From positions 16,012 to 80,011 of the IMG/VR virus record IMGVR_UViG_3300028569_000028: a DNA stretch of 64,000 nt. The stretch is one strand, 5' to 3'. This document shows positions 1,414 to 29,364 of the stretch, one piece after another (within the stretch, counting starts at the first letter, position 1; each line of letters starts with the position of its first letter). Made by a program: the position numbers and the translations under genes. This stretch comes from a virus. Below the pieces are notes generated by a model that ran no database searches, was not told where the DNA came from, and saw only the letters and a list, made by a program, of their open reading frames with translations.

Positions 1414-1417
1414 TTAA

Positions 1418-3285: not shown

Positions 3286-3317
3286 AAAAAGGGGGCTGAA
3301 AAGCCCCTTTCTTCTTT
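3285..3317 (+). terminator. Rho-independent terminator
   Basis: GGGGCT-GAAA-AGCCCC hairpin, T-rich tail, A-tract upstream. Confidence 0.8.
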
Positions 3318-3326
3318 GGAGTTTTC

Positions 3327-3551
3327 ATGAAGTTTAAAATTGGACCTTTTCGACAAGCACATAAAACGTTTGTACAAGAGAGATATATAAAAGATGGTAT
3401 GGATTCTTTAGCTTTATATTGTGCTGTTAGTTTATGTCCAGTAATTGCAGCTTATACCTATTGTCAAGAAATCGATCCAGATAATTCTGAGTTGACGAGA
3501 AGAATTGAAAGTGTTAAGCTTTTTTATGGAATCGAAGAGGTAGAAGAATGA
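3327..3551 (+). CDS. hypothetical protein
   Basis: GGAG SD; coupled to next gene. Confidence 0.65.
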   Translation: MKFKIGPFRQAHKTFVQERYIKDGMDSLALYCAVSLCPVIAAYTYCQEIDPDNSELTRRIESVKLFYGIEEVEE

Positions 3552-3757
3552 AGCCGGGAAGATATATTATTTTAGAAAAAACTGCGTTCTGGGTTCATTC
3601 TGATTTTGACATGTTGGATATTTTAGAAATAACCGAGAAAGAAATAAAGTATGAGTATGTTGGAGATAAGGATAAGATTGTAAGGTGTAGGTATTATGTA
3701 GAATTTATACAACTTAAACTTGCTCCGCATTCACCACTAATGGAAGAATTAATTTAG
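3548..3757 (+). CDS. small protein with C-terminal SPLMEELI tag
   Basis: Ends APHSPLMEELI*. Confidence 0.7.
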   Translation: MKPGRYIILEKTAFWVHSDFDMLDILEITEKEIKYEYVGDKDKIVRCRYYVEFIQLKLAPHSPLMEELI

Positions 3758-3764
3758 GAGAATT

Positions 3765-4796: not shown

Positions 4797-5647
4797 TGAA
4801 GCTTAGTATTTTTTCTAAGGTAAACTACCTACCAAAGAATAAAGATGATAAGATTGCCCAGTCTAAACTTGCGTCTAATCCTAACCTTCCACAAGTAATT
4901 GAGATTACTACTGATGAGGATTTGATTAAGGCTGTAACATCTTATGGATGGAGTCCGAGTATTTTCTCAAGCTTTAGACATAATGATAATTTTATTTCTA
5001 CTGACTTTATGAGCTTAGACGTTGATTCTGGGTTAACTATAGAAGAAGCTGAGAAGCGTGTGCAAAGACTTGGAGTGGCTTGCTTATGCCTTCCAAGTCC
5101 GAGCTTTACCCCAGAGTTTCATAAGTTCCGACTAATATTTCCACTGGCTAAGACTATTCTTAACAAAGATGACTTTGATGCTACGTGGGATTGGTTACAA
5201 GAACAATTACCAGAACTTGACGCACAATGCTCTGACTATGCTCGTTGGTACGCTCCTTCCAAGATGGAAGCTGGCTTTTGGCAAGATGGAGAATTCCTTA
5301 TGCCAAAGAAAGCTCCACAAGCTGTAGCAAGTTCCCTAAGCCACGCAGAAGCTCAGGTAATTGTCCCAGAAGAGCTTTCAGAGATTGTTAAGCTTTTGTA
5401 TGGCAAAGAACGAGAAACCATTTCTGAGTCTGTGGAGTTCTTTCTAACTAATGCAGGGACAGGATTGCCGGGACTCTGGATCAATGCGCTAAATAGTTGC
5501 ACCTTCTCTCTTGCCTTATCTGGGGTTGATGATACAATAATTGAGGAAGTCATTGATAAGATTTCTCCAGAACCTTTGGATAAGCGCGACCTATACCAAA
5601 TTAACAGGGCTATACGAGATGGAAAAAAAGCTAGAGAAAAGATGTAA
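4796..5647 (+). CDS. primase (AEP/prim-pol-like)
   Basis: SLDVDSG DxD motif, HKFRLIFPL, adjacent to helicase. Confidence 0.7.
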   Translation: MKLSIFSKVNYLPKNKDDKIAQSKLASNPNLPQVIEITTDEDLIKAVTSYGWSPSIFSSFRHNDNFISTDFMSLDVDSGLTIEEAEKRVQRLGVACLCLPSPSFTPEFHKFRLIFPLAKTILNKDDFDATWDWLQEQLPELDAQCSDYARWYAPSKMEAGFWQDGEFLMPKKAPQAVASSLSHAEAQVIVPEELSEIVKLLYGKERETISESVEFFLTNAGTGLPGLWINALNSCTFSLALSGVDDTIIEEVIDKISPEPLDKRDLYQINRAIRDGKKAREKM

Positions 5648-5840
5648 GGTGGATGATTTTAAGGTTGGCTCCAAGTACCGTTGTGGTTTACATACCTTTT
5701 ATGTAACTAATATTGACAGCATACACGGATGTGTGTATATTAAGTGGATTAAAGATAATGCTCAAGGTCTTATTTATCTTGGTAGTGAGTTCTATTCCTA
5801 TGAAGTTCCACTATCATCCTTAGAAAAGGAGTTACTTTGA
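5541..5840 (+). CDS. small SH3-like protein with C-terminal SSLEKELL tag (true start probably 5619 or 5649)
   Basis: FKVGSKY start region; ends PLSSLEKELL*. Confidence 0.65.
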   Translation: MRKSLIRFLQNLWISATYTKLTGLYEMEKKLEKRCKVDDFKVGSKYRCGLHTFYVTNIDSIHGCVYIKWIKDNAQGLIYLGSEFYSYEVPLSSLEKELL

Positions 5841-6088
5841 AAGACTCGCTAATTGACTATAATGATATATCATTTGAAAACCTAACTATGAAAATGGATC
5901 TTGAAGGACTTAGCGATGATATATTACTAGAAGAGTGTAATTTTATATTAAGCGGTCAATATGAAAGTGAACTTATGGATAACGTACTTGCCAATTACTT
6001 TAAAACCGGTAGCATTAGTAAACAAGAGCGTATGGTAGCAGAAGCTCTTTATATACTAGCTAACGGAGAACTTGCATGGGAAATTTAA
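5837..6088 (+). CDS. hypothetical acidic protein
   Basis: Coupled ORF, AAGGAG SD. Confidence 0.6.
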   Translation: MKDSLIDYNDISFENLTMKMDLEGLSDDILLEECNFILSGQYESELMDNVLANYFKTGSISKQERMVAEALYILANGELAWEI

Positions 6089-6306
6089 AAGTTGGCGATG
6101 ATATTATAGTTACAAAAGTATTGTGTATTGCTACAGCAATAAAAGCTAAATCAATAATTGGAACTAAACATAAAATTATTCAATTAGATTTTGTAGATTT
6201 TATAAGCTTCCAATTTCAAACGTATCCGTATCAGATATTAGTAAAAGGTACTACTTTCTGGGTGGAAGGAATTCCTTACAGTTCTTTAATGGAGGAGTTA
6301 TTTTGA
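6076..6306 (+). CDS. small SH3-like protein with C-terminal SSLMEELF tag
   Basis: LKVGDDI start; ends PYSSLMEELF*. Confidence 0.7.
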   Translation: MGNLKVGDDIIVTKVLCIATAIKAKSIIGTKHKIIQLDFVDFISFQFQTYPYQILVKGTTFWVEGIPYSSLMEELF

Positions 6307-7712
6307 AAGATTCTTATCATATTTCTGATAGCATTGCTTATTCCGAATTACGTTCTCTTATATTAGAGGACAAGGAACCTTTTCAACTCAAGCCTGATAA
6401 AATTGAAACAAAAGATTACGAGTTTACATTCGCAGAAACTTATAAGCCTTTTCTAAAAGAATTACAGTATCAAGATGATATCATTTTTGGTAAAGATAAA
6501 ACTTTAGAAATTGTGGCTATTGAATTGCAAGATAATAATGCCATTCTATTCAAACTGGATGGTTCTGTAGAGGTACGTCCAGCTAAGTTTTGGCTTTTAT
6601 CATCAACAAAGATCGACCTTAATTTTAAAAGACTGGAAGGTAATCTCCATTACAAGTACATTAGGTATTTCTCATCTTATGAGCAATTCTGCAAATATAT
6701 GCAAATGTTTATGGGTATGAGAAAAGATGTCTATGGTGTATGGAATGCTCGTGAGCAATTTATGCTTCACGAAGGAATAACGCTTTATAAGGGACTTCAG
6801 CCACAGGATTTAGGTGTACTGGCTTTTGATATTGAGTCTGATGGATTAACAAAGCATTCCGGTAGCCAAGTTTATCTTATTACAAATAGCTATCGCAAAA
6901 AAGACCTGCATATTAAAAAGCACTTCAGACTCGACCATTACAAAGATTGTGGCGAACTTATTGATGCTTGGACTGAATGGCTAAGAGAAATTGATCCAGA
7001 TATTATTAACTTCTGGAACGGATATGGTTATGACTTACCCTATCTTGAGCATGTTGCAGGACTTTATGACACAAGCCTAAAGCTTGGGCGTGATGGTTCA
7101 AATGTCCAATTTAAGAAGAAAGCCTCTCAGAAGCGCGTGGACGGAAATACAAGTTGGGACTACTTTAAAGCTCATATCTATGGTAGACAAATTATTGATG
7201 GTCAATTTGTAGCATTAAACTATGGCGTTGGTAAGGGATATCCAAGTTGGGGGTTAAAGCCTATCGCTGAAGCTGAAGGCTTTGTTACGCCTGATAGACA
7301 ATTCTATGATGCTTCTCAAATTCATAAAAACTGGGGAATTCCAGAAGAGCGTGAGAAAATTATCCAGTATGGTATCGATGACTCAGAGGATACAATTAAT
7401 TTATACTTCCGAATGATTACTTCCTATTTTTATACAGCTGTATCAACAGCTATGCCATTTGAAGAAATGCTACAAGGAGCTACTGGTAAATGGGTAAATT
7501 CAGTTCTTGTGCGGGGATATCTCCAGCGTGGATATTCTATTCCTAAAGCTTCTGAACCGCAAAGAGTAGCTGGTGGTATGAGTTATGGAATTCCGGGAAT
7601 CTATTCCAATGTTCTAAAGTATGATGCTGCCAGTTACTATCCTAGCACTATCCTAAGTTTAATATTCACAATTCAGAAAAAGATCCTGACAATATATTTG
7701 TTAAGACTGTAA
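6303..7712 (+). CDS. family B DNA polymerase, N-terminal part (3'-5' exonuclease + motif A); frameshift at ~7658
   Basis: ExoI AFDIESDG, ExoII WNGYGYDLPYL, ExoIII YGIDDS, motif A YDAASYYPS. Confidence 0.9.
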   Translation: MKDSYHISDSIAYSELRSLILEDKEPFQLKPDKIETKDYEFTFAETYKPFLKELQYQDDIIFGKDKTLEIVAIELQDNNAILFKLDGSVEVRPAKFWLLSSTKIDLNFKRLEGNLHYKYIRYFSSYEQFCKYMQMFMGMRKDVYGVWNAREQFMLHEGITLYKGLQPQDLGVLAFDIESDGLTKHSGSQVYLITNSYRKKDLHIKKHFRLDHYKDCGELIDAWTEWLREIDPDIINFWNGYGYDLPYLEHVAGLYDTSLKLGRDGSNVQFKKKASQKRVDGNTSWDYFKAHIYGRQIIDGQFVALNYGVGKGYPSWGLKPIAEAEGFVTPDRQFYDASQIHKNWGIPEEREKIIQYGIDDSEDTINLYFRMITSYFYTAVSTAMPFEEMLQGATGKWVNSVLVRGYLQRGYSIPKASEPQRVAGGMSYGIPGIYSNVLKYDAASYYPSTILSLIFTIQKKILTIYLLRL

Positions 7713-8767
7713 AATACTTTACCGAAGCTCGACTAAATAATAAGAAGCTATTTAAAGAAACTGGAGATAAGTATTATGATGATTTACAGGCTGCTGGTAA
7801 AATCTTCATTAACTCAAGTTATGGAGTTTTAGGGACTCCCGGCTTGAACTTTAACTCTTTTGAACACGCAGCAGAAATTACCCGATGTTGCAGAGCTGGA
7901 CTTAGCAAGGCTGTAATCTGGGCAACAGGTTATGATATTACTCACTGGTGGAAAGAATATAAGGAAGAACAAGATTATGAAGACTTTTCTCACATTGATA
8001 TACAAACTAAAGTTAGCTTTGATAATATGCCTAGAAATAATTACATCCTTGTTAACCTCGATACCGACTCACTCTCTTTCGCTAAAAATGACCACAGCAG
8101 CTTTTCTGAGGAAGAGAAGCGAAGTATTGAAGAGCAACTTAAAGGAATAATGTATTGCGATTGGGAAGACGATGGTGAATATGACCGAGTGATTGTTTCC
8201 AAGGCTAAGAACTATGTTTTACTTCCCAAGGGTGAAAAGAAGTTTAAAACTAAAGGTTCAAGCTTTGTTGATAGTAAGAAAGAACCGGCATTGTTATCTA
8301 TGCTCCAAGAACTTCTTAAGAGCTTGGTTTTTAATGAAGGAAAGGAGCTGGAGGTTTATAATAGGTATTGCAAAGAAACCTTAGCCATTTCAAATATTTC
8401 TCGTTGGGCTGTAAAAAAGTCTGTGACTAAAAAGCTGTTAACTGGAACTAGGAAAAATGAAACTAAGGTTTTAGAAGCTTTAGACTCGGATGCTAGAGAA
8501 GGTGATAAAGTTTGGGTTTATAACGCAGTTGATGGAGAGGTTCAAGTTGAAGCAAAAGGTGAACTTCAGTTCTACAAGGATGGTCGTCCCAAGATGGAAG
8601 CAAACCGAGTTCTTAGAAATGTAAAACGCTTTGATGGAAATTATGACAAGGATCATTATTTAAGCAGAGTTTATGCCACTATAAGAATTTTAGAAAATGT
8701 TCTTGATATGTCACAGTTCTTGGATTACTCTAAACCTAAGAATGCTAAACTCAAGGAGAGTTTGTGA
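7661..8767 (+). CDS. family B DNA polymerase, C-terminal part (-1 frame; ORF track start 7844)
   Basis: -1 frame is open from 7646 and carries motif B KIFINSSYG, motif C LDTDS and KNY. Confidence 0.9.
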   Translation, partial: NIHNSEKDPDNIFVKTVKYFTEARLNNKKLFKETGDKYYDDLQAAGKIFINSSYGVLGTPGLNFNSFEHAAEITRCCRAGLSKAVIWATGYDITHWWKEYKEEQDYEDFSHIDIQTKVSFDNMPRNNYILVNLDTDSLSFAKNDHSSFSEEEKRSIEEQLKGIMYCDWEDDGEYDRVIVSKAKNYVLLPKGEKKFKTKGSSFVDSKKEPALLSMLQELLKSLVFNEGKELEVYNRYCKETLAISNISRWAVKKSVTKKLLTGTRKNETKVLEALDSDAREGDKVWVYNAVDGEVQVEAKGELQFYKDGRPKMEANRVLRNVKRFDGNYDKDHYLSRVYATIRILENVLDMSQFLDYSKPKNAKLKESL

Positions 8768-9162
8768 TATTAGTGTCTAAAGAAAAGATTAAAAAATGGA
8801 ATAGTTATAGAAGTAGAGCTTTAAAGAAAAATATACCTTTTACATTAAGTGAAGATTTATTTTTTATAGCACTTCATACTCAATGTTTTATTTGCGGAAA
8901 AAACGGTCAGAACAATGAGTTAGGTTTAGATAGACTTAACAATAATTCTGGATATATATCAGGAAATATAGCCCCTTGTTGTTGGGAATGCAATAGAGTT
9001 AAAAGTAACCTAAGTGGTAAGGATTTTCTTAAGTGGTTAAAAAGACTACAACCAAAACATCCCTTAATAACAAAAGGTCATTGTCAACCTAAAGGCTATT
9101 TGAATGGTCAATTTGTTTATATTGATATAAAAATAAATCCTGAATTATTAAAACAAATATAA
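8764..9162 (+). CDS. HNH-type endonuclease
   Basis: CFICG...GLDRLNNNSGYISGNIAPCCWECN. Confidence 0.8.
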   Translation: MILVSKEKIKKWNSYRSRALKKNIPFTLSEDLFFIALHTQCFICGKNGQNNELGLDRLNNNSGYISGNIAPCCWECNRVKSNLSGKDFLKWLKRLQPKHPLITKGHCQPKGYLNGQFVYIDIKINPELLKQI

Positions 9163-9163
9163 C

Positions 9164-9193
9164 TTGACATATAATTTCGCTTTAGTGTAAACT
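9164..9193 (+). promoter_or_regulatory. sigma70-like promoter
   Basis: TTGACA-18nt-TAAACT in an intergenic gap upstream of AGGAG/GTG 9211. Confidence 0.55.
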
Positions 9194-9210
9194 GCCCGAT
9201 AGGAGCTATC

Positions 9211-9372
9211 GTGGAAATACTACAAACAATCGCTTTACTGTGTCAACTTAGTGGAGCTGGAGTTTATGCAGAAGAAGCACAGCTACGCTGTCAAAAGTAT
9301 TATGTTAAATGTTTAGACCCACTTAATGCTGGCTATAAAACCTTAGCCAAATGTATACTGGAGAAAAAATGA
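9211..9372 (+). CDS. 53-aa Cys-containing protein (absent from ORF track)
   Basis: AGGAG SD; MEILQTIALLCQ...KCILEKK*; coupled to next ATG. Confidence 0.6.
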   Translation: MEILQTIALLCQLSGAGVYAEEAQLRCQKYYVKCLDPLNAGYKTLAKCILEKK

Positions 9373-9689
9373 ACTTAAAAATTGGCGATAAAGTAAAAAT
9401 GACAAAGAAAGGCTTTAAATTCTACGGCAATATAGAAATCACATTCGATATGAATCAAATTGATGGAAAGATGATTTATGAGCATTTTGAATCAGCTCTT
9501 TGTGAATCCAAAGCTATTCATGGTATTGGTACTGTTAAAAGATTCAACGATCTAAACGAACCTTATGTTCTTTGGGAAAATAGTTTAGATGGAATAAGGT
9601 ATTTCTACACTCACTACTTTGAACTAAAAGATGTAAGAAAGCTTAATTTCTTTGACAGACTTAAAGCTAAACTAAAGAGTTTACTATGA
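9351..9689 (+). CDS. hypothetical SH3-like protein (start probably 9369)
   Basis: MNLKIGDKVK start. Confidence 0.65.
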   Translation: MYTGEKMNLKIGDKVKMTKKGFKFYGNIEITFDMNQIDGKMIYEHFESALCESKAIHGIGTVKRFNDLNEPYVLWENSLDGIRYFYTHYFELKDVRKLNFFDRLKAKLKSLL

Positions 9690-9841
9690 TTATTTTGCTT
9701 AAACTAGCACTTAGCTTTTTCATTGGTAAAGTTATTGGGAAGTATTGCCATAAAAATGAACTTAGCCCATTTTTGGGTATTGCGTTAACTGTAGCGTGTG
9801 TTCTTGCTACTTGTGTAATAATTGATAAGATGATTTTATGA
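9686..9841 (+). CDS. 51-aa two-TM membrane protein (absent from ORF track)
   Basis: MIILLKLALSFFIG...FLGIALTVACVLATCVII; overlaps both neighbours. Confidence 0.55.
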   Translation: MIILLKLALSFFIGKVIGKYCHKNELSPFLGIALTVACVLATCVIIDKMIL

Positions 9842-10263
9842 AGCAATATTTAAACTATGTACTTGTTGGAGTTATTGCTTTAGTAGTTGGTAGATTTGTA
9901 TTACAACCAAAGCCTAAAACTATTGAAGTTGTTAGGTACGTGGAAAAGAAAGAAGAAACTAAGAAGACAAAGAAAATCACAAAGACTAAAGAACGCAAGA
10001 ATCCAGATGGAAGTTCCCAGACTGAAGTAGAAGTTGTCGAAGATTCTACTAGTAACTCTTCATCAACTATTACTTCTGAAAAAACAAAGGTTATTTCTAA
10101 AGGCATATCAGTTGGTATACTCGCTCTAAAAGACTTGGATAAGTTCTCAGAAAAGCTTGAGTATGGCGCAGTTGTGTCTGTCCCAGTATTAGGTAGCTTG
10201 TCTATAATTGGTTCAGCTGATACCACAAAACGAGTTGGTTTAGGCTTAGCTTTGGAGTTTTAA
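9838..10263 (+). CDS. envelope protein: N-terminal TM, C-terminal beta strands ending in Phe (spanin-like candidate)
   Basis: Hydrophobic N-terminus, charged linker, ends RVGLGLALEF*. Confidence 0.55.
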   Translation: MKQYLNYVLVGVIALVVGRFVLQPKPKTIEVVRYVEKKEETKKTKKITKTKERKNPDGSSQTEVEVVEDSTSNSSSTITSEKTKVISKGISVGILALKDLDKFSEKLEYGAVVSVPVLGSLSIIGSADTTKRVGLGLALEF

Positions 10264-10460
10264 TGGGTTGGTGGGATGATCCTAATTATGATTCCAAGAA
10301 GAAGGAAGAGAACGAATCTGCTCTACCTTGGGACAAACAAATGTGTCACCATGATTGGAAAGCTGTTGTGCTAATAAGAACTACAGTATATAATTGTATA
10401 CGTTGTGATGTTAAAAAAGAAGACTTCGAAGCTTGGGAAAAGAAGCGACGAGGCTTTTAA
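10263..10460 (+). CDS. small Zn-binding hypothetical protein
   Basis: CHHDW...CIRC. Confidence 0.55.
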   Translation: MGWWDDPNYDSKKKEENESALPWDKQMCHHDWKAVVLIRTTVYNCIRCDVKKEDFEAWEKKRRGF

Positions 10461-10570
10461 AGGAACTATATGTCAGATTCAATTGGAAGTGTTTGTAATA
10501 AAGAAGAGTGTAAGGGTACAGAATATACCTGTGCTTGTCAGAAGTGTGAAAAAAACTCAGAAGAAGGATA

Positions 10571-10831
10571 GTGAAAGGTTCAGAGCTTCTGGAGTTTATT
10601 AAGAACAATAATTTAGAAAATGAAGAAATAACTATTGAGTATTTTTCTTGGGAAAGAAAACAAAAATATTGCGGAAAATGTAATTGCATTGTAAACTTGA
10701 ATAGGTTTCACAAAGGAACTTCTGGGCTTGATCCAGATAAATCATCTTTCTATAGATACATATGTAGAGAGTGTTTAAATAAGTCTGCTTTTCATAAGAA
10801 ATATAAAAAGAAAGAGGAACTGGGAATATGA
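10571..10831 (+). CDS. zinc-finger hypothetical protein
   Basis: CGKC...CREC. Confidence 0.55.
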   Translation: MKGSELLEFIKNNNLENEEITIEYFSWERKQKYCGKCNCIVNLNRFHKGTSGLDPDKSSFYRYICRECLNKSAFHKKYKKKEELGI

Positions 10832-11451
10832 ATAGTTATTTTGATAAGTTCGGAAGACTTCATCACAAGCCTTGCATCAACGGAGAACCCGCTGGAAACA
10901 ATGGCTGGATTTACTCCGCCTACTTCCATAAAAGTAAAGGGAGTCTTAACTCTATCCTACTAAATGAATGCTTTAGAGATTGTGTGAAAAAACATCCAAA
11001 TGGTCAGCTTTATACAAATAGACATCCAGATGGATATAGCAAGGTTCCTCAGTCTCGTGACGAAATTCTTGGCATGGCTTCTCTTGGATTCCTTCACCCA
11101 ATGCATCTAAACGGCTGGAACTTTAGCCCTTACCCTATCCCACCCTTTAGCTTGAAAACGCTTATAAAGCAAGTTTTGGAGCTTAAGGGACAGCACAGAA
11201 ATTATTTCTGGAAGAATGACTTGTCCCAGATTTACCGCTTTGCTTTTTCTGTTCCTTTACAAGATAGAGCTTTTCTGTTAGAATGCTTTGGAGAAACGAG
11301 AAGAATATCTTATTTCTTTTATAAAGCTATTGCTTTTCTTGATGCCAAATTTGGTAAGCCTAAGAATGGCATTCCTTGGCTTAAGTATGGTGGAGAAGAG
11401 AGAAGACGAGTAATGCAAGCTGAGTTTCCAGAAGGACATCCGTTGAGGTAA
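10828..11451 (+). CDS. hypothetical protein
   Basis: 207-aa coupled ORF. Confidence 0.7.
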   Translation: MNSYFDKFGRLHHKPCINGEPAGNNGWIYSAYFHKSKGSLNSILLNECFRDCVKKHPNGQLYTNRHPDGYSKVPQSRDEILGMASLGFLHPMHLNGWNFSPYPIPPFSLKTLIKQVLELKGQHRNYFWKNDLSQIYRFAFSVPLQDRAFLLECFGETRRISYFFYKAIAFLDAKFGKPKNGIPWLKYGGEERRRVMQAEFPEGHPLR

Positions 11452-11453
11452 TT

Positions 11454-11693
11454 ATGATTAAGTTTAAAGCATTTATTTATCGCTTTTCAAACATCTTCGG
11501 ACTTTACATTTATCTGGCTCAGAAAGAAGAAGACGCCTATATTAATAGCTTAGGTGAAGATGCAGATTTTTTAAGCTCTGGACTTTGGCAAGCATGTAAT
11601 GGATTTACAACTATCCTTACATATAAACAACCCTTCTTTAAATCTCTTGTATCCAAAACAAAACATGCTTTTGATTTCAGGAGCTATAAATGA
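11454..11693 (+). CDS. hypothetical protein
   Basis: GAGG SD, coupled. Confidence 0.6.
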   Translation: MIKFKAFIYRFSNIFGLYIYLAQKEEDAYINSLGEDADFLSSGLWQACNGFTTILTYKQPFFKSLVSKTKHAFDFRSYK

Positions 11694-12091
11694 TTAGCTG
11701 GCAAGAAATTCTAGGCACTTATAAAGAAGCAGACATCCCCAAAGAACATTTGGACAATCTTAGAATTTTGCATAAAAAGATGAATGAAGTTAGAAAGCAG
11801 TACGCTAAGCCGATGACTCCTACCAGCATATATCGAAGTATGGCTGATCATTTGCGTATTTATAAAGAACTTGGCATAACTGACAAGGCTAAGATTCCAA
11901 TGAAGTCAAAGCATTTAAGTGGAGAAGCTATTGATATCTCCGATAAAGATGGTGAGCTGATGATTTGGTGCAAGAGTAATGTACTTATACTGGAAAGTGT
12001 CGGTTTATGGTGCGAAGAGAAAGATGACAAGAAAAGAGTTCACTTCCAGATAGTTCCTCCTAAAAGCGGTAATAGATTCTTTCTTCCATAG
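11690..12091 (+). CDS. peptidase M15-family endolysin
   Basis: YRS...SKHLSGEAIDI...VHFQ (H-x6-D...H Zn ligands). Confidence 0.8.
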   Translation: MISWQEILGTYKEADIPKEHLDNLRILHKKMNEVRKQYAKPMTPTSIYRSMADHLRIYKELGITDKAKIPMKSKHLSGEAIDISDKDGELMIWCKSNVLILESVGLWCEEKDDKKRVHFQIVPPKSGNRFFLP

Positions 12092-12093
12092 TA

Positions 12094-12122
12094 TTGACAA
12101 ACTTTATTTATCATGAGAGACT
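12094..12122 (+). promoter_or_regulatory. possible sigma70 promoter
   Basis: TTGACA-17nt-GAGACT with TG extension; weak -10. Confidence 0.35.
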
Positions 12123-12128
12123 GCTAAA

Positions 12129-12260
12129 ATGAATTCTGAAGACTACCACAGCCAACGAATTAAGTTACAAGTGTTACAGGCAAAATTACAATTTTTACAA
12201 GTTGTAATTCAAGTTACTACATTGGCGGCTACTTTAATACTTCTTGGGAATAAGCTATAA
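12129..12260 (+). CDS. 43-aa protein with hydrophobic C-terminus (absent from ORF track)
   Basis: MNSEDYHSQR...ATLILLGNKL*; TAATG coupling to next gene. Confidence 0.5.
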   Translation: MNSEDYHSQRIKLQVLQAKLQFLQVVIQVTTLAATLILLGNKL

Positions 12261-12559
12261 TGGTCACTATGATAGTTGTTGGAATTTTGTTGACAATTAA
12301 TATGTTTTTAATGCATATTGAGTATCTAGGAAAGGCGTATAGCTGGACTTATAAAAAACTCATGAGACCAAAATTTGAATCAGGTGAACTTGTAATGATA
12401 GGAAATATAGAATTTAAAGTTATGTATGTGACAAAAAACCATAGACCGTACACTTATTATTGTACGCCAGTTAGTTATAAAAAGATGTACTTCGTAGATA
12501 ATTATTACCACGAATCTCAAATCAAAAAGAAGACTGGTTTATTAAAGGAATTAGAATGA
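12260..12559 (+). CDS. TM-anchored SH3-like protein with C-terminal TGLLKELE tag
   Basis: N-terminal TM, FESGELV, ends KKTGLLKELE*. Confidence 0.65.
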   Translation: MVTMIVVGILLTINMFLMHIEYLGKAYSWTYKKLMRPKFESGELVMIGNIEFKVMYVTKNHRPYTYYCTPVSYKKMYFVDNYYHESQIKKKTGLLKELE

Positions 12560-13344
12560 GCAAACAGAATTGGAGTAAACCTCAGATTAATTTTGTAATT
12601 ACCCAACATAAGAGAGGATTTTCTAGAAAGGAAATTACTTATAAGTTTAATAATAGATTTCCTGAAAGCATTAGAACTCAAGATTCAATTAAGCATTGCA
12701 TTGATATACATGGGGTAAGTGTAGAAAAGTATATTCCTAAAGTTCTCATTATTGACATTGAGACAAAACCAATGCTTGCTAAAGTTTGGGGCTTGTTCGA
12801 TCAAAACATCGCTTTAAACCAAATTGTAGATGAAGGTGGTATATTCTCGTGGAGTGCTAAATGGCTTGATTCTAAAGAAGTTATGTATAAAGATGTCAAA
12901 GGTAATAAGAAAAAAGAAAAAGAATTACTTAAGCCTATGTGGAAGCTAATGGATGAAGCTGATATTATTATCGGTCAAAACAGTAATAGCTTTGATATTA
13001 AAAAACTAAATGCTAAGTTTTTAGAATATAAGCTTGGATCTCCTAGTGAGTATAAAAAGATAGATACGATGCTAATGGCAAAGAAACATTTTAAGTTTGT
13101 TTCTAATAAGTTGGAGTACATGTCTAAAAAGTTTTGCAAAATCAAGAAATTAGCACATAGTAAATTTCCGGGGTTTTCTTTGTGGGATGAATGTGAGAAA
13201 GGGAACTTACAAGCTTGGAAAGAGATGAGGCTTTACAATATGGCTGATGTAGAAGCCACAGAAGAACTCTTTTTAGTATTGTCTGAGTTTGATAAATCAG
13301 AAGTAGTAACGAGTGCTTTAAGAGCTTATAAAAACAGAGGCTAA
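12556..13344 (+). CDS. DnaQ/RNase H-fold 3'-5' exonuclease (YprB-like) with N-terminal HTH
   Basis: IIDIET, GQNSNSFD and YNMADV (DEDDy) motifs. Confidence 0.8.
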   Translation: MSKQNWSKPQINFVITQHKRGFSRKEITYKFNNRFPESIRTQDSIKHCIDIHGVSVEKYIPKVLIIDIETKPMLAKVWGLFDQNIALNQIVDEGGIFSWSAKWLDSKEVMYKDVKGNKKKEKELLKPMWKLMDEADIIIGQNSNSFDIKKLNAKFLEYKLGSPSEYKKIDTMLMAKKHFKFVSNKLEYMSKKFCKIKKLAHSKFPGFSLWDECEKGNLQAWKEMRLYNMADVEATEELFLVLSEFDKSEVVTSALRAYKNRG

Positions 13345-13345
13345 T

Positions 13346-13690
13346 ATGGCTGGTAAAAAGTTCGTGACAAGAATTATAAAAGGAGCCGAATGGCACTTCT
13401 ACTTGGAGTCTGCTACCGTTTATAAGCGCAAGCATGGTTCTGACTCTGATGCTATTACTTATATTAAAGAACGTGAAGTTTACTTTAATGCCGCTGAGTT
13501 TGACACTAACTGTGTGCGTCATGAATTGTTCCATATTTACATAGCTGAGAGCAATACTAACTCTTCTCCAGATTTTACAAAGGATGACATGGAAGATTTA
13601 AGTGCTGAAATTGTTGGGGAATTTGGACCTCTAATAGTTCATGAAGCTGACTTTATTCACAACAAACTTGTAGTATTGAATAGAAAATGA
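13346..13690 (+). CDS. small HExxH zincin-like metallopeptidase
   Basis: RHELFH motif. Confidence 0.6.
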   Translation: MAGKKFVTRIIKGAEWHFYLESATVYKRKHGSDSDAITYIKEREVYFNAAEFDTNCVRHELFHIYIAESNTNSSPDFTKDDMEDLSAEIVGEFGPLIVHEADFIHNKLVVLNRK

Positions 13691-13926
13691 AATTAATAGC
13701 AAAACTTGTATTTAAAATACATAGACTTATTTATAAGTACCCAACTAAATCTGAGATTAGACTTGCTTTAGCAGTTATACCTTTTGATAGATTTGAATTG
13801 ACAGAAAGTGTAGGTATATTGTATCTTTGTGAGAGTTCTATTGAAGAAGTTGGAGATTGGTTTAGTATGGATGAGAAAGCAGTTATTAAAGAATTAAATA
13901 CTTTAGCAGACAAGGTTAAACTATGA
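13687..13926 (+). CDS. hypothetical protein
   Basis: Coupled ORF. Confidence 0.6.
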   Translation: MKLIAKLVFKIHRLIYKYPTKSEIRLALAVIPFDRFELTESVGILYLCESSIEEVGDWFSMDEKAVIKELNTLADKVKL

Positions 13927-14342
13927 TTGAAACTATTTTTGGTTCAGTAGATATAGGAGATAGAGTTCAGTTTGATTATCCAACTGGAGTAAAAACTGGG
14001 GTTATCAAAAGTGTAACTCCTACACTAAGTAGCATTTCTGTTTCTATTTATTGTACTGATAGATCTGGAGGACACACTCTGTCAGTTCCTCATTATAATA
14101 TCACTAAGATTCTTTCAGTAGAGGATACTTCTATTACCACACAAGAAGAAATTAAGAAACCTGCCAGATATAATAAGAAGGGTAAGCTTGAGTGCTGGGA
14201 CGTAGTTCTTGACCAAGAGATGAATTTCTTGGAAGGCTCAGTTCTTAAATACCTTTGGCGTTATAAAGAAAAGAATGGAATTCATGACTTACAAAAAGCT
14301 AAAGTTTATATTGACAAGATTATTGAAGAGTTAAAGAAATGA
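13923..14342 (+). CDS. DUF3310-like protein with N-terminal SH3-like domain
   Basis: PARY...ECWD...FLEGSVLKYLWRYKEKNGIHDLQKAKVYI. Confidence 0.8.
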   Translation: MIETIFGSVDIGDRVQFDYPTGVKTGVIKSVTPTLSSISVSIYCTDRSGGHTLSVPHYNITKILSVEDTSITTQEEIKKPARYNKKGKLECWDVVLDQEMNFLEGSVLKYLWRYKEKNGIHDLQKAKVYIDKIIEELKK

Positions 14343-14515
14343 CATTAATTAAATGTACCACTAGCTTTTTAATTGGCTTTTATATTAGTTTTGTAATAAC
14401 ATTATCTATAACTGGCTATGTCATGGTTACAGAATTTGTATCCAAAGCTAGTTTAAGAACAAAAATTGTTTATATTGACGGGAAGGTGTACGATGTTAAA
14501 GAGAAGCGAAATTGA
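14339..14515 (+). CDS. 58-aa membrane protein (absent from ORF track)
   Basis: MTLIKCTTSFLIGFYISFVITLSITGYV...; start overlaps upstream stop. Confidence 0.5.
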   Translation: MTLIKCTTSFLIGFYISFVITLSITGYVMVTEFVSKASLRTKIVYIDGKVYDVKEKRN

Positions 14516-14708
14516 AGGTATTTACTATTCTAATAAAACTGGGAGAATGTTCGAAGCTGTATCTGATGGGCATGGCTATGTAATTACTAGATATTGTGAT
14601 GATGCCAGTCCTCAGTTTGGACCATGTGTTGTAGATTATATTTTTAGAATGCACCATTTTATGGATATATATGAAACTATAATTAGTTATACAGAAGATG
14701 ACAATTAA
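14466..14708 (+). CDS. hypothetical protein
   Basis: ORF; start probably MLKRSE. Confidence 0.55.
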   Translation: MFILTGRCTMLKRSEIEGIYYSNKTGRMFEAVSDGHGYVITRYCDDASPQFGPCVVDYIFRMHHFMDIYETIISYTEDDN

Positions 14709-15256
14709 TGTTTATCACTATTCTTACTTTGTGTATTATCTATCTAGCTTATTTATACATAAGCCAATTAGTAAAGCATAAAGAACTTATCATTGGGTAT
14801 AAGAATCAGGTAGAATCGTATAAAAAGCTTGTGCCGGATGTTGGAGCAATTGTACCTATATCGCACTTTAGGGAAGTCGTTGACAATAAGACCTTCCAGT
14901 TAAATAAAACTGAGGCTCAGCTATTGCTAGTTGAAAAAGAACTTCAAGAGCTTAAGTCTCAACAGCAAAGTAAAAGCGTTAGGCTTGGCTTAATCTCAGA
15001 ATGTGTCTTGCCTTTTCACAGCGATTTCAAGTATAATGTTAAAGATCTTGTTCCAGTATTTAGACCCATAGACTACATTGTGTTTGCTGAAGATGAAATT
15101 GTATTTTTGGAAATAAAGATTGGGACTAGCCATCTTAGTGAAAAACAAAGGAACATACGTAATTTAGTCCAACAGGGTAAAGTTAGGTTCGAAGAGCATC
15201 GTGTCAATGAAACTGGATATTCCATAAAGGAGAATCATGGGAAGACGCAAAGCTAA
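14708..15256 (+). CDS. membrane-anchored Holliday-junction-resolvase-like endonuclease
   Basis: N-terminal TM, coiled coil, PIDYIVF...IVFLEIK...LSEKQRNIR. Confidence 0.75.
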   Translation: MFITILTLCIIYLAYLYISQLVKHKELIIGYKNQVESYKKLVPDVGAIVPISHFREVVDNKTFQLNKTEAQLLLVEKELQELKSQQQSKSVRLGLISECVLPFHSDFKYNVKDLVPVFRPIDYIVFAEDEIVFLEIKIGTSHLSEKQRNIRNLVQQGKVRFEEHRVNETGYSIKENHGKTQS

Positions 15257-15512
15257 TCTGGAATTAGAATATGAACTTGAACGTCAAATCAAGGACTTAA
15301 AAGAGCAGAATGCTAAATTAAAAAAGTTGTTGCGTGAAAAAGAAAAGACTGTTAAAGTAGAAAAGAAGGACAAGCCTATTGAAAAGGCTAAGCCTGTTGA
15401 AAAAGAATGTCCTAAATGTGGAGCTAAGATTAAATCTTCTGAACTTCCAATGGGGTATTTAGAATTATGTTCGGTTGGTTGTGGATACAGGGCAGTTACT
15501 AAAAAAAAATAA
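15237..15512 (+). CDS. coiled-coil + zinc-ribbon protein
   Basis: CPKCG...CSVGCGY. Confidence 0.65.
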   Translation: MGRRKANLELEYELERQIKDLKEQNAKLKKLLREKEKTVKVEKKDKPIEKAKPVEKECPKCGAKIKSSELPMGYLELCSVGCGYRAVTKKK

Positions 15513-15521
15513 AGAGGTATT

Positions 15522-15926
15522 ATGACAAAAGATAAAGGTATTCGAGTTTCTGTAGAGCAGATAATTAACAGCGATTCTTTAAACGCCTCCAATTCTGACT
15601 GGATAACTCCTAAAAAAGCAACCCTACTATCTGGAAATGCTGGTACTTTAGTTGAAGCTGAAGAAGGCGGGATGTATCTGATTCCAATGGGTTTATGGTT
15701 TAGAAGTGATTTATATAATAAAGGACTACCTCAGGTTAGTGAGTTTAATAAACTTCAGGATTTAGGGCTTACTATTATAAAAGACAAGATTGTAAGGCAT
15801 GAAGCAAAAACAGAACAAAAAGAAGTGAGTGATAATGGACAAGCGATTCGAAGCCAAGATAATGTCAGCTCTAAGAAAGTTAACAAAACAATGGCCACCA
15901 ATATTAAAAGCGAAACGAAAGACTAA
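15522..15926 (+). CDS. hypothetical protein
   Basis: GAGG SD; long overlap with next ORF. Confidence 0.55.
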   Translation: MTKDKGIRVSVEQIINSDSLNASNSDWITPKKATLLSGNAGTLVEAEEGGMYLIPMGLWFRSDLYNKGLPQVSEFNKLQDLGLTIIKDKIVRHEAKTEQKEVSDNGQAIRSQDNVSSKKVNKTMATNIKSETKD

Positions 15927-16230
15927 AGTAGGTCCAGAGCTTCATAAATGTCCTTTGTGTGAGCAATTGGTTTATACTGGCAAAAGAGCTATTGAAGTAA
16001 TTCAAATCGACCATCCTAGTGTCATTGCTGGACGTATGGACGTAGACCATCGAATTCCAATCATAGAGATTCAAGAATCTGGAAAAGAAAAAGATTGGAA
16101 CTCTATAATATCTAGGATGTTTTGTGAAGAAGATAATTTGCAATCGATTTGTTCTAAATGTCACCTAGAAAAGACAAAAAAAGAAAGAACAGAGAGAGCT
16201 TTAGCGAGGAAGAATGGTACAAAAAGATAA
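15829..16230 (+). CDS. HNH endonuclease
   Basis: CPLC...VDHRIP...NLQSICSKCH. Confidence 0.8.
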   Translation: MIMDKRFEAKIMSALRKLTKQWPPILKAKRKTKVGPELHKCPLCEQLVYTGKRAIEVIQIDHPSVIAGRMDVDHRIPIIEIQESGKEKDWNSIISRMFCEEDNLQSICSKCHLEKTKKERTERALARKNGTKR

Positions 16231-25974: not shown

Positions 25975-26323
25975 ATCTCACACCTCTATTATAAATTATC
26001 TGATAAACATCTTCGTAATTATGTTGCATTCCAAAAAGCCTACAAAGATGCGCAGTTCTTTGTTGGGTAAACTCAGAAGTGCTTTTACTTATTTGAGCAG
26101 AAATTGTTTTACATTCTTTTTGTTTAGCAATTTCTTCTACTTTAGTTGCTAATTCTTTCCACTTATCTCTACCCCTTGCTAGAGGAGTTACGTACATTTC
26201 TATAATTTTTATACATTTAACTGGACCAATTTCCTGTAGCTCATAAGTTACAAAGCTATCTTCATCCTCTAAGGTTTCCCAGTTAACCGTTTCTTTAACA
26301 AACTCTGCGTATAGACTAGCCAT
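25967..26323 (-). CDS. GNAT-family acetyltransferase-like protein
   Basis: IIEMYVTPLARGR...AKQKECKTI motif A; typical position among ejection genes. Confidence 0.7.
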   Translation of the reverse strand: MASLYAEFVKETVNWETLEDEDSFVTYELQEIGPVKCIKIIEMYVTPLARGRDKWKELATKVEEIAKQKECKTISAQISKSTSEFTQQRTAHLCRLFGMQHNYEDVYQIIYNRGVRYE

Positions 26324-28545
26324 TAACTTTGCCTACGCAATAAATCCGTTAAAGCTGCAGTTCTTGCTCTTGTTGCTTCTGTATCAACAATATTAGCTCT
26401 ATTTTCAAATCCTTGACCTTGTAGAAATTGAGCATATTTATTTTGTAAATCTTGAATTGCTAAATCTTTTGCTATTGCAGAACCATAAGCTTTCATCTCT
26501 CCAGTATTAATACCGCCTATAGCTCCTCCGATTCCTCGTAAAGCACTGCCTATAGCTCCGCTAGAGCTTCCGCCAACATTAGAGATAGCTCCTCCAACTT
26601 TTGAGCGAGCATCTTGAACTCCTGTTGCAATAGTTCCTAATCCTTTAATTCCTAATTTTTCTTCTAGTTCTTTTGCAAGATCAGTATACAATTGAGTTGT
26701 GTCTAAAGTATTAGCCCCTGCGAATCCCCCAACAGCTCCTCCTATTGCAGCTCCTATACCAGCACCAATAGGACCAGTTCCAGTCATAGCACCAATACTA
26801 GCCCCTGTACTAGCTCCTGCACCAACACCTTCTAGTGCCGATCCGCCAATTCCTTCTTGTATATCTCTACTAGTTGATGTAGCACCTAAATATTTATTAA
26901 GCAAGTCTTTATCTGACAGTAGAGATTTTATCCCTTCTGTACCTTCTGCACCAACATCGTACCCAGCTTGACGAAGCATGTCAGATACATTCCCTTCAAC
27001 AGATGCACCGTATGTTTTTGTTTTTTTACCATATACATTACCACGAGATACTTTCTTTTCTCCCGTTCCTGTTAATGTAGCTCCCTCGGCTGCAGTTTTA
27101 AATCCTTGCTGAGATTCATTTAACAACCTTCTAAAAGACTCGACATCTAAGGAAGATGATAAATCCTGAGTTCCGGCTTTTGATAAATCGCTATATGTTA
27201 AATCTTTTTGTAATTCTCTTGAAATATCTGTACCAGCAAGTTGTTGTAATGCAAGTTGTCTAGAAAGTTCATCTTTAGTAATAAGTTTAGCACGTTCTGC
27301 TTCAGCAGCTTTGATATCTTCTGGACGAATGTTATAAAGTCCCTCACCCGCTCCAATTCCTAAAACAGCAGCTTCTTCTGCAGATAATTCCCATTGTGGC
27401 TTAGTTTTAGTTGCTAATGATTGTTTAAAATACTCTGGAAGTCTATCCCACTCTGTTTGATAAACTGGATTACCTGCTGTATCTACAATTTGCTTTCCTG
27501 CAGAATCAAGTTTTGCAATTTTATTGCCTTGCGTATCAACTGCTGGAGTTTTAATTAAATCATCAATTCTTTTTTCTGTAGCTTGTTCTTCTACAGCTCT
27601 TGCTCCAGTAAACTCTTGTCTTGCTCCAGATCGAATCCCTTCAATTACGGCTTGTCTTTGTACTGCCTCATTGGTGGAAAGATTCTGAGCAGCTTGTAAA
27701 GCTTCTTGAGCTTTAGCAGCTGGTTGAGCTTGTTCTTGTAGTTGTTTAACGCCTTGCTGAGATGCGTTTAAAAGAAGAGCATCAAGCTTTGACACACCCC
27801 TTCCATATTCTCTCGTTCTACCAAATACATCTTTTAAAAGCTGCTCTCTACCTAACGCAGTCTGAGTCTTTTGTGCCGCTTCCTGAGCTGTTCTAGCTTT
27901 CTGAGATGCTTGTTCGTAAAGCCCCGCTTGCTGAAGAGAAGCCGGTCCTTGATATTGAGCATTAATAATTTCAGCAAAACGCTGTTGTTGTTCTGGAGTG
28001 AAATATTGTTGAGCTTGAGCTTGTGGCTGAGTTGGTGCTTGAGTGGGGGTTGGAATAGCTGGAGCTTGTCCTTCTACTAATGCTGCAGCTTGTGTTTGTG
28101 GTTGTGGTTGTGGAGCTTGATAAGTCGCTCCTCTAGCAGTTCCAACAATACCTTTAGCTTCTTGTGCAGCTGTTTCCATACTCTTGATGGAGCCAGCTTC
28201 CATTCGTCTTCCAAACGCTTCCTGAGCTTGTTGTGTGCCTTTTTGAGCACCTGCTCCAAGTTTCTGAACCTGTTGAGTAGCGGCTTGAGCAACACGCTGT
28301 TGCCCTCCACTTTGAGCGGCTTGTAAATAATTTTTTAAATTGGAAAAAGTGCCAGTTCCAGCTTTAGGCTGTTTTGGCATTGGCATTGATGATTGGGATG
28401 GTTGACTCGCTCCAATAGTTGCTGGAGCGGAGGAAGCCTGTTGAGGCTGTTGTTCTTCGGGCTGTGGTTGACCAGCCATGCCTTGACCTAGTGCTTGGCT
28501 TGTACCTTGACCTTGTTGTTGTTCTTCGTCTTTTACAATAGCCAT
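26323..28545 (-). CDS. internal virion/DNA ejection protein with glycine-zipper region
   Basis: Q-rich; GAGIGAAIGGAVGG. Confidence 0.6.
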   Translation of the reverse strand: MAIVKDEEQQQGQGTSQALGQGMAGQPQPEEQQPQQASSAPATIGASQPSQSSMPMPKQPKAGTGTFSNLKNYLQAAQSGGQQRVAQAATQQVQKLGAGAQKGTQQAQEAFGRRMEAGSIKSMETAAQEAKGIVGTARGATYQAPQPQPQTQAAALVEGQAPAIPTPTQAPTQPQAQAQQYFTPEQQQRFAEIINAQYQGPASLQQAGLYEQASQKARTAQEAAQKTQTALGREQLLKDVFGRTREYGRGVSKLDALLLNASQQGVKQLQEQAQPAAKAQEALQAAQNLSTNEAVQRQAVIEGIRSGARQEFTGARAVEEQATEKRIDDLIKTPAVDTQGNKIAKLDSAGKQIVDTAGNPVYQTEWDRLPEYFKQSLATKTKPQWELSAEEAAVLGIGAGEGLYNIRPEDIKAAEAERAKLITKDELSRQLALQQLAGTDISRELQKDLTYSDLSKAGTQDLSSSLDVESFRRLLNESQQGFKTAAEGATLTGTGEKKVSRGNVYGKKTKTYGASVEGNVSDMLRQAGYDVGAEGTEGIKSLLSDKDLLNKYLGATSTSRDIQEGIGGSALEGVGAGASTGASIGAMTGTGPIGAGIGAAIGGAVGGFAGANTLDTTQLYTDLAKELEEKLGIKGLGTIATGVQDARSKVGGAISNVGGSSSGAIGSALRGIGGAIGGINTGEMKAYGSAIAKDLAIQDLQNKYAQFLQGQGFENRANIVDTEATRARTAALTDLLRRQS

Positions 28546-28564
28546 ATGTATTTTTCCTCTGTAA

Positions 28565-28574
28565 TATAAGGGTG
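28565..28574 (-). promoter_or_regulatory. late promoter motif CACCCTTATA
   Basis: One of 9 intergenic copies; ~20 nt upstream of ATG 28545. Confidence 0.8.
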
Positions 28575-28622
28575 TTAAATGGCATTTTTCACATTCAACA
28601 CAATATCAATTACTTATAACTA

Positions 28623-28651
28623 TTGCCAGTCTCACAAAGTTATGCTATATT
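28623..28651 (+). promoter_or_regulatory. sigma70-like promoter for a putative ncRNA
   Basis: TTGCCA-17nt-TATATT with TGn extension; TCACAAA/TTTGTGA inverted repeat flanks the -10. Confidence 0.6.
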
Positions 28652-28657
28652 TGTGAA

Positions 28658-28950
28658 CGGAGACTAACATCTCCTCTTTTTGCTCTTTTGGACCGTGAAA
28701 TAGAGAGTTTACAAGCGAACTCGATATATGAGCCGGTGTAGGAAACGAAATACTCAACTAGGTGTCGTAAAACCACTAAGTACCTAGCGGAAAGCCAGAG
28801 AGTTAAACAAAACAACTTATAGACTTGGGGTTTTGTAGAAAAGAGAAATTCAGGTTAAAAGCCCCAGCCTTATCCCCAATTAGCTAAAAAGCACATTAAG
28901 GATTTGGTTTTACTAAAAAGAGATTTAAGCTCTATATAAGTGAAACTATG
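28658..28950 (+). ncRNA. putative structured non-coding RNA, family unknown
   Basis: Within a 410-nt gap lacking a credible ORF; own promoter; several stems, some with G-U pairs on the + strand. Confidence 0.5.
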
Positions 28951-28956
28951 TCAAAA

Positions 28957-29364
28957 TTACTGAATAAGCTCCAGCGTTAACCTATACTTTACTCCAGTAG
29001 TAAATCCCACCCCATAATTAATCTTAACAATGCCATTGCCTTGAAAGCTCCAGTCAAGATATGGAACCTGAGAAATTCTTGAAGCATTAGTAATGTTTTG
29101 AATCTTTCCAATGTGAAGCATTGAAACAAAGCTTAAGTTCGTTACAATACTAGCATTTCCAACAGGCTTGCCTGTAGAATCAAAGCTAATATCAATGTTA
29201 ACTTTGGCACGAGCTAAATTATCAAAATCAAGTTGACCATTTACAACTTGGTATATTTCATCAGCAAATTCATTATAAGAACCAGCAACTCCCTCAATAA
29301 CTTCTTGAGCTTCTTTGCTGTAATCCTCTGGAATAATTCTTCGAATATCACTTAACTTTGGCAT
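28957..29364 (-). CDS. tail-associated protein
   Basis: Coupled to tail tubular B. Confidence 0.6.
   Translation of the reverse strand: MPKLSDIRRIIPEDYSKEAQEVIEGVAGSYNEFADEIYQVVNGQLDFDNLARAKVNIDISFDSTGKPVGNASIVTNLSFVSMLHIGKIQNITNASRISQVPYLDWSFQGNGIVKINYGVGFTTGVKYRLTLELIQ

Follow-up and report, generated by a model that had tools for sequence, protein, structure and literature searches.

What does a phage keep in the one sizeable stretch of its late structural arm that no protein-coding gene covers? The DNA analysed here is a 64,000-nt stretch (hereafter the window), corresponding to bases 16012-80011 of an 80,011-bp IMG/VR virus record (IMGVR_UViG_3300028569_000028) that is judged 95% complete. 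Positions 28586-28956 are the sole part of the window, among stretches of 200 nt or more, that is left uncovered by open reading frames (ORFs, at least 60 amino acids, any strand), and a preliminary description of this DNA was right to single them out as its largest non-coding gap. That description had also proposed an unclassified, independently transcribed and structured plus-strand RNA of ~300 nt, and covariation, G-U asymmetry, promoter conservation and the lack of any Rfam match now argue for such an RNA. The intergenic gap as a whole extends from 28546 to 28956, with both flanking genes on the minus strand, and its principal features are the following.

26323-28545, minus strand: late gene of 740 amino acids, with no family match
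28556-28578, minus strand: phage late-promoter motif TTAACACCCTTATATTACAGAGG, divergent from the RNA promoter and upstream of the 740-aa gene
28623-28651, plus strand: RNA promoter of sigma70 type with extended -10, found by sequence scan, its position kept in all 15 relatives
28632-28656, spanning the -10 box: inverted repeat TCACAAA-N11-TTTGTGA (halves 28632-28638 and 28650-28656), read directly
28659-28950, plus strand: structured RNA body (type A) of ~292-295 nt, from covariation, with ends inferred from the promoter and the limit of conservation
28957-29364, minus strand: late gene of 135 amino acids, modelled as a helix and a beta-sandwich

The surrounding genome is divided by strand. 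Replication and accessory genes occupy the plus strand of window positions 1-21,400 (a DnaB-like helicase, a family-B polymerase exonuclease domain, ERF, ClpP and a ClpX-like ATPase), while a minus-strand block at 21,681-61,235 forms the late structural arm, with terminase, portal and major head protein, several tail-fibre-like proteins and an SU10-type adaptor. The early arm (record positions 1-16011 together with window positions 1-21400) further contains a B12-dependent class II ribonucleotide reductase, a pyrimidine-dimer glycosylase, ERF, a MoxR-like AAA protein adjoining a DUF2201 metallopeptidase/VWA protein, a Holliday-junction-resolvase-like nuclease, a collagen-repeat protein and at least three free-standing HNH or GIY-YIG endonuclease genes. 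The large terminase is of the T4 type, and in the nearest terminase comparison, with a Silvanigrella phage, it is 29% identical; the phage has no close cultured relative, and a search of cultured-phage DNA left the RNA region unmatched. DNA of the RNA stretch is found in lake, estuary and other freshwater metagenomes, with 13 studies listed, and the phages of the RNA-bearing group look lytic. Among RNA libraries none contained the stretch: three runs labelled RNA-Seq with small shares of it consist of contigs and are probably DNA, and the one true metatranscriptome yielded nothing, an outcome that speaks neither for nor against expression. A fold search with the 135-aa protein, which has 180 relatives in metagenomes, gave no significant match and a weak, non-significant similarity to tailspike domains.

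The RNA gene is oriented against the late structural genes around it. Its promoter, read from the sequence in the preliminary description as TTGCCA-17-TATATT with an extended -10, is present as described: the -35 box TTGCCA lies at 28623-28628, followed by a 17-nt spacer with TG at 28643-28644 and the -10 box TATATT at 28646-28651. It scores 10/12 in a promoter scan and places the predicted RNA start at ~28658-28659. The region contains no excess of promoter-like sites (5 found against 5.5 expected), nor is the extended -10 form enriched genome-wide, and the weight of this promoter therefore rests on its conserved position and form in relatives. It occupies the same place in all 15 of them, the most divergent included, with a perfect TTGACA-17-TATACT in relative L066 and a promoter likewise kept in relative L020.

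Two further elements had been noticed beside the promoter. The inverted repeat around the -10 box is present in the window and is kept in only some relatives: intact in L018 and L027, with one mismatch in L004, and as a compensated variant in L040 (TAACAAA/TTTGTTA, both halves changed together), most of the others being without it. It resembles, and could be, the operator of a dimeric DNA-binding protein. The late motif does stand back-to-back with the promoter, and its core recurs: CCCTTATAT is found 14-30 nt upstream of five minus-strand late genes, the 740-aa gene and four others. The copy at 28556-28578 is predicted to restart late transcription for the 740-aa gene. In the longer form AACACCCTTATAT(t/a)AC the motif lies at window positions 28572, 35592, 42248, 52678 and 58153, on the minus strand each time and without a -35 box; genome G003 contains the same motif seven times, every one on the late strand, and variants (AACCTTATA and others) are found in genomes G005 and G004. 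A candidate second late promoter within the gap, CACTTATAT at 28934-28942 on the minus strand, was rejected because its key bases vary in relatives, whereas true late motifs are invariant.

Relatives of the locus were fetched with the 135-aa gene as a query. Together with the 740-aa protein and DNA patterns from the conserved core, this recovered the locus in ~15 distinct viral or metagenomic contigs, and in every recovered relative a gap of 375-430 nt occupies the corresponding position. The type A RNA is present in 13 relatives and the window, and is 81-93% identical to that of the window, against 73-79% for the flanking genes. Invariant columns of the alignment show the loops and junction strands to be better conserved than the stems. 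From 28673 onwards the RNA is also matched by one metagenome contig, whose preceding sequence (TGGTAGTTTATGTCTGGGAGAGAAATACTC) is unrelated; this suggests one more lineage, in which the 5' hairpin or the promoter region differs. Matches with other spacings in pattern scans of metagenome and viral sequences were chance occurrences in GC-rich coding DNA, and a scan of 185,579 species genomes returned a single chance match, in a coding region of a Gemmatimonadales MAG.

The preliminary description had held that folding no better than shuffled sequence would speak against the RNA, and folding of the single sequence is indeed not better than that of shuffles (z -1.33 on the plus strand, -1.84 on the minus strand). 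The decisive evidence therefore had to come from relatives, and the case for a structured RNA is comparative, not thermodynamic. With RNAalifold, a 14-sequence alignment yielded a structure of 66 pairs, of which 17 have compensatory changes; 98.3% of cells pair in this structure, and when the 3' partners are shifted by 1-3 columns the proportion falls to 34-48%, with 1-3 compensated pairs. An extended model, which adds L066, two loop contacts and one further helix to the 14-sequence alignment, comprises 77 pairs in 15 helices across 15 sequences, with 97.9% paired. Two-sided changes occur in 27 of these 77 pairs, against 1-6 in slid controls, a value not reached in any of 500 shuffles. All the sequences compared come from one phage clade, several of its members being nearly identical, and since many of the sequences are so closely related, independent compensatory events are fewer than the cell counts suggest.

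The same alignment bears on the question of strand. G-U pairs favour the plus strand, as had been proposed, with 112 G-U against 4 A-C cells, such that 98.3% of cells pair on the plus strand and 86.4% if read on the minus strand, a count biased by the prediction of the structure on the plus strand. The reverse complements were therefore folded independently. In these folds compensation survives only in symmetric hairpins; the long-range helices that newly arise show none of it and contain several breaks. Long-range helices with compensation appear on the plus strand only. Taken together, the G-U asymmetry, the reverse-complement folding and the conserved promoter place the RNA on the plus strand.

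These data also bear on the idea that the conserved element is a product of the opposite strand, either a small protein from a 56-codon ORF with a TTG start (28645-28815, minus strand) or an element of the minus-strand late-operon mRNA. A stop-free frame of 52-67 codons does run across the 5' domain of the RNA in most relatives, and the single sequence folds slightly better on the minus strand (the z of -1.84 above). The frame nonetheless has neither an ATG nor a Shine-Dalgarno sequence, and indels of 10 and 4 nt shift it in L020, so the peptide is not conserved. Furthermore, substitutions are pairwise compensatory across stems and alter amino acids on both sides, and none of the 112 G-U cells would pair on the minus strand. 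We give a minus-strand product scarcely any credence; the frame, which could lead gene callers to annotate a hypothetical protein here, is probably a by-product of the purine-rich RNA strand.

On the comparative evidence, the gap is read as a stand-alone gene for a ~295-nt plus-strand RNA with a conserved, compact, multi-helix fold, whose parts are listed below.

28659-28674, plus strand: H1, the 5'-terminal hairpin GGAGA-CUAACA-UCUCC, with a stem that varies in nearly every lineage and always pairs
28675-28844, plus strand: 5' domain, with three-way and four-way junctions, from covariation
28675-28681 with 28838-28844, plus strand: helix a1, long-range, helping to close the three-way junction
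28682-28691 with 28795-28803, plus strand: helix Pa, long-range, helping to close the three-way junction
28807-28813 with 28830-28836, plus strand: Pf (ACAAAAC/GUUUUGU), the variable hairpin of the three-way junction
28693-28695 with 28788-28790, plus strand: helix Pb, closing the four-way junction
28700-28727, 28729-28756 and 28758-28787, plus strand: Pc, Pd and Pe, the arms of the four-way junction
28735-28737 with 28772-28774, plus strand: kissing contact between the Pd loop (GGU) and the Pe loop (ACC), from covariation
28845-28950, plus strand: 3' domain, helices 11-15 of the model
28853-28863, plus strand: hairpin Ph of the 3' domain, with a UUAAAAG loop
28905-28913 with 28940-28948, plus strand: terminal helix Pg, with an inner hairpin at 28919-28922/28930-28933

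Three of the four stems in the preliminary description are part of this fold and covary: GGAGA/UCUCC (28659-28674), GAGUUU/GAACUC (28705-28722) and CUAGGU/ACCUAG (28758-28787). The fourth, UGGGGUUUU/AAAGCCCCA (28826-28866), is found in the window sequence only, and the conserved hairpin at that place is Pf. H1 itself reaches 9 bp with a GAAA loop in L066. The U-rich run after H1, which might be taken for a terminator-like tract, has another role in the model. A scan did list H1 and this tract as an intrinsic terminator, a candidate that we rejected because the U run pairs with 28795-28803 and 28838-28844, with compensation, and so forms the 5' strands of two long-range helices; the run is lost in L066 and L020. 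The same scan found no intrinsic terminator downstream of the RNA.

The long-range helices a1 and Pa are built from a pyrimidine-rich 5' strand that pairs with two purine-rich strands 115-165 nt downstream. Pa offers the clearest example of compensation: the pairing is GCUCUUUUGG/CCAGAGAGU in most sequences, GCUCUGAUGG/CCACAGAGU in three relatives, GCUAGUUUGG/CCAGCUAGU in L066 and CCUAUCGAAG/CUUCCAUAGG in L020; the sequence is thus wholly different in L020 and partly so in L066, with pairing intact in both. An internal loop, A opposite AAAG, lies between the three-way and four-way junctions, and the first arm of the four-way junction contains tandem G-A pairs. In the 3' domain an AUCC/GGAU helix is paired in only 86.7%.

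For each of two tertiary contacts the support consists of one or two events. The kissing contact between Pd and Pe, GGU:ACC, is replaced by GGC:GCC in L013 and L066 and, in L020, by CC in the Pd loop with GG in the Pe loop; support for it is moderate because these are two independent events at most. The second is a possible pairing between CCAA, which follows the AUCC strand, and the invariant UUGG of the Pf loop. L020 is without both the Pf hairpin and CCAA.

In the window, the Pe loop (GUAAAACCA, 28767-28775) is a perfect 9-nt complement of the 5' strand of Pg (UGGUUUUAC, 28905-28913), a pairing that would compete against the kissing contact as well as the terminal helix. As a conserved pairing this was rejected, being 7 bp in most relatives, weakened in L013 and broken in L020, and it may be coincidental or reflect an alternative conformer. 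It nevertheless offers the kind of alternative pairing on which a riboswitch-like RNA could draw if it sensed a ligand and so gated antisense read-through into the late genes, and a conserved junction with variable arms does resemble an aptamer. Set against this are the failure of L020 to maintain the pairing and its weakening in L013, the lack of a terminator or a ribosome-binding-site platform, and the riboswitch families of Rfam, none of which matches. We therefore regard ligand-gated read-through as distinctly improbable.

Comparison with described RNAs yielded no assignment. Rfam 15 (4227 models) gave no match at the gathering threshold anywhere in the window, in agreement with the unclassified status originally proposed, and across 28400-29100 at E up to 10 the best value, 0.78, belonged to unrelated eukaryotic models. 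ARAGORN found no tRNA or tmRNA gene in the window. The full-text literature, searched for strings of the core sequence and for phage RNAs of a comparable kind, yielded nothing, the 2023 catalogue of viral structured RNAs (PMC10690425) lying outside the comparison. A tmRNA, suggested by ClpXP-like genes and shared C-terminal tags, was rejected in that no RNA frame encodes the tag motif of the phage. GACCGUGAAAU recalls the P3-J3/4-P4 junction of group I introns; the covariation-supported helix order is nested save for the two loop contacts, the flanking genes lie on the opposite strand, and the Intron_gpI model is unmatched at E up to 10. A cobalamin riboswitch was considered, the phage having a B12-dependent ribonucleotide reductase and the Pe loop reading GCCACU in L013 and L066, and was rejected: GCCACU sits in a hairpin loop, there is no downstream gene and the Rfam Cobalamin model is unmatched. 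6S RNA, pRNA, SRP RNA and RNase P, considered on motif resemblance, each fail a defining feature. Judged by these searches, the RNA matches no described RNA family.

A covariance model of the 127-nt core (R1) finds one copy in the genome of the window and divergent second copies in two related phages, at other loci: at C1 4428-4547 of G004 (plus strand; L071 1029-1148; 28 bits) and at C1 79531-79656 of G003 (plus strand; L072 932-1057; 16 bits). Both carry GGACCGUGAAA ... AGCG(G)AAAGCC and differ in their three arms, such that the core common to the type A RNA and the second copies is GGACCGUGAAA...AGCGGAAAGCC. Because this core is shared while the arms differ, we take it to be the conserved part of the family. 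The minimum-energy fold of the G003 copy has the same closed four-way junction (z -2.6), while that of the G004 copy is without the closing helices; there, the case for a common architecture depends on the R1 alignment. The G004 copy is opposed to the small ORFs next to it; that of G003 occupies a divergent intergenic region of 750 nt, not the inside of an operon, and is preceded by CCCCCTTACATTATGAGG, which resembles the late motif.

An invariant junction core with tandem G-A pairs, kept by divergent paralogues with arms of varying sequence and length, is also what might be expected of a ribozyme, self-processing or otherwise catalytic, with its active site in the four-way-junction core. The kissing arms would pre-organise such a core, and the loci are mobile or exchangeable, one of them beside a homing-endonuclease-like gene. 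The Rfam ribozyme families are nevertheless unmatched even at E up to 10, and the RNA has no exon context and no repeated units, which leaves a catalytic role improbable in our estimation.

The same slot can hold a different RNA. In L004 and L006 it contains an RNA of ~330 nt (type B) that R1 does not match; 79 pairs are predicted for it, 9 of them compensated between just two sequences. In L006 (4418-4762) type B stands behind its own sigma70-type promoter, with no endonuclease-like ORF. L004 is the closest relative, its 135-aa protein being 93% identical to that of the window, and keeps the window's promoter up to GGAGACU, where a 180-aa ORF with DUF559 and a zinc ribbon starts, using GGAGA as its ribosome-binding site; after the ORF come a second promoter, TTTACA-17-TATACT, and then type B (L004 4409-5440, on the minus strand of that locus, which corresponds to the plus orientation of the window). 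DUF559 presumably adopts a Vsr-like endonuclease fold, and we take the ORF to be homing-endonuclease-like. The segment replaced in L004 is exactly the RNA body. Two further pattern scans produced no more type-B members, and Rfam leaves the L004 variant unmatched. Since two related phages carry a different RNA behind a sigma70-type promoter in the same slot, the gene behaves as an exchangeable cassette, a pattern that, by analogy, would be typical of host-takeover or counter-defence cargo.

The position of the gene allows another view, in which transcription into the 135-aa and 1528-aa genes, polymerase collision, or pairing with late read-through transcripts would time or insulate tail-gene expression in cis, and the fold would serve stability only. 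The RNA gene is convergent with the upstream late genes, has a fresh late promoter directly behind it and is followed by no terminator, and the second copy in G004 is likewise opposed to its neighbours. Against this view, conservation of the RNA body gives out at the stop codon of the 135-aa gene, without running into any coding sequence, and selection keeps tertiary contacts and junction bases rather than a seed. The second copy in G003 stands in its divergent intergenic region, outside any operon, and simple interference would not need ~15 helices. Complementarity of the RNA to the 80-kb phage genome is also unremarkable, with 75 ten-mers against 67 +/- 10 in shuffles and a longest match of 12 nt. 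The antisense brake on late read-through offered in the preliminary description is thus unsupported, and we consider cis interference in general to be unlikely.

A replication origin or primer, likewise offered in that description, fares worse. Promoter-driven untranslated transcripts are known at the T4 origins ori(34) and ori(uvsY), and the locus does resemble some phage origins in producing such a transcript within a long gene block. Cumulative GC skew, however, turns at ~21-22 kb and ~61 kb and not at 28.6 kb, there are no iterons (only two weak direct repeats) and no AT-rich unwinding block, compensatory changes indicate selection on RNA pairing, and the slot can be swapped for an unrelated RNA. 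An origin is accordingly very improbable here.

Of the functions first suggested, a decoy or binder is the one we would prefer. More fully, we lean by a little towards a discrete, stable RNA that would be made by host polymerase from a swappable cassette and would act in trans through its shape, as a binder or decoy and possibly as a catalyst. We infer this from the fold, the strand, the promoter, the paralogue core and the exchangeability, and from the absence of a downstream gene of the same orientation, of coding overlap, of excess complementarity and of an origin signature; the argument for trans action is mostly one of exclusion. In such a scheme host RNA polymerase would produce the RNA, probably early in infection, and the terminal hairpins would leave it as a discrete and stable species. 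It would then bind a host or phage protein, or a small ligand, by virtue of its three-dimensional shape and not by base pairing with messages. The junction core, GG-A-CCG-UGAAA ... CGG-AAAG-CC, would be the likely functional site, and the gene would constitute an exchangeable cassette, an 'RNA moron'.

A more specific version of this trans-acting reading can be put forward tentatively, as one that we judge possible and would not expect to hold in full. The RNA might be the founding member of a new class of ornate phage RNA, defined by the invariant core GGACCGUGAAA ... AGCGGAAAGCC in a closed four-way junction, present in one or two copies per genome and swappable with an unrelated RNA class at the same promoter; the core might then be a catalytic or high-affinity site used in host takeover or counter-defence.

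Large ornate RNAs of phages and prophages are represented in Rfam by ROOL (~580 nt) and GOLLD (~800 nt), which have also been the subject of cryo-EM work (bioRxiv 10.1101/2024.12.08.627333). Like them, the type A RNA is an orphan, stand-alone phage RNA recognised by covariation, with many helices and conserved unpaired bases. It differs in being ~295 nt long and in having no sequence or structure match to either, and the window contains no tRNA genes, near which ROOL and GOLLD are usually found.

Parallels with better-characterised systems are likewise partial. The pRNA of phi29, ~120-174 nt, is transcribed from a host-type promoter at the genome end of small protein-primed phages, serves the phi29-type motor as a folded RNA and forms loop-loop pairs of 4 nt, AACC/UUGG. 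The present RNA is also a phage RNA with a host-type promoter, and its candidate UUGG:CCAA contact resembles AACC/UUGG, but the phage has a T4-type large terminase and the Rfam pRNA model is unmatched. 6S RNA, one of the protein-sequestering RNAs and a long imperfect rod with a central bubble, is made by the sigma70 holoenzyme and acts in trans via its shape; the proposed trans action and the sigma70-type promoter would be analogous, whereas the RNA described here is branched, with three- and four-way junctions, and is not matched by Rfam 6S. The morons of lambdoid phages are autonomous promoter-to-terminator units between late genes. Our RNA gene is similarly an independent transcription unit between two late structural genes and is exchangeable among related phages, but its cargo is RNA rather than protein, the phages look lytic and no terminator is evident. 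Finally, T4-like phages contain free-standing homing endonuclease loci (the seg and mob genes). The L004 slot, with its DUF559 and zinc-ribbon ORF and the adjoining RNA body replaced, looks as co-conversion would leave it; unlike such loci, the window has no endonuclease at this position, and L006 has the alternative RNA without the ORF.

Only a few phage RNAs as large and as intricate are known, and hardly any of them has been given a function. With strong comparative support, a promoter and a length below 300 nt, this RNA suits probing or cryo-EM, and natural variants already mark its important parts: paralogues with the same core, L020 without Pf and CCAA, and the alternative RNA in the slot. 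The clade that carries it is abundant, as the 180 metagenome relatives of the adjacent 135-aa protein indicate. If the RNA does bind a host factor or act as a catalyst, it would add an RNA-based tool to the biology of phage host takeover and counter-defence, and the new class, if real, would be the RNA-only equivalent of an anti-defence gene cassette.
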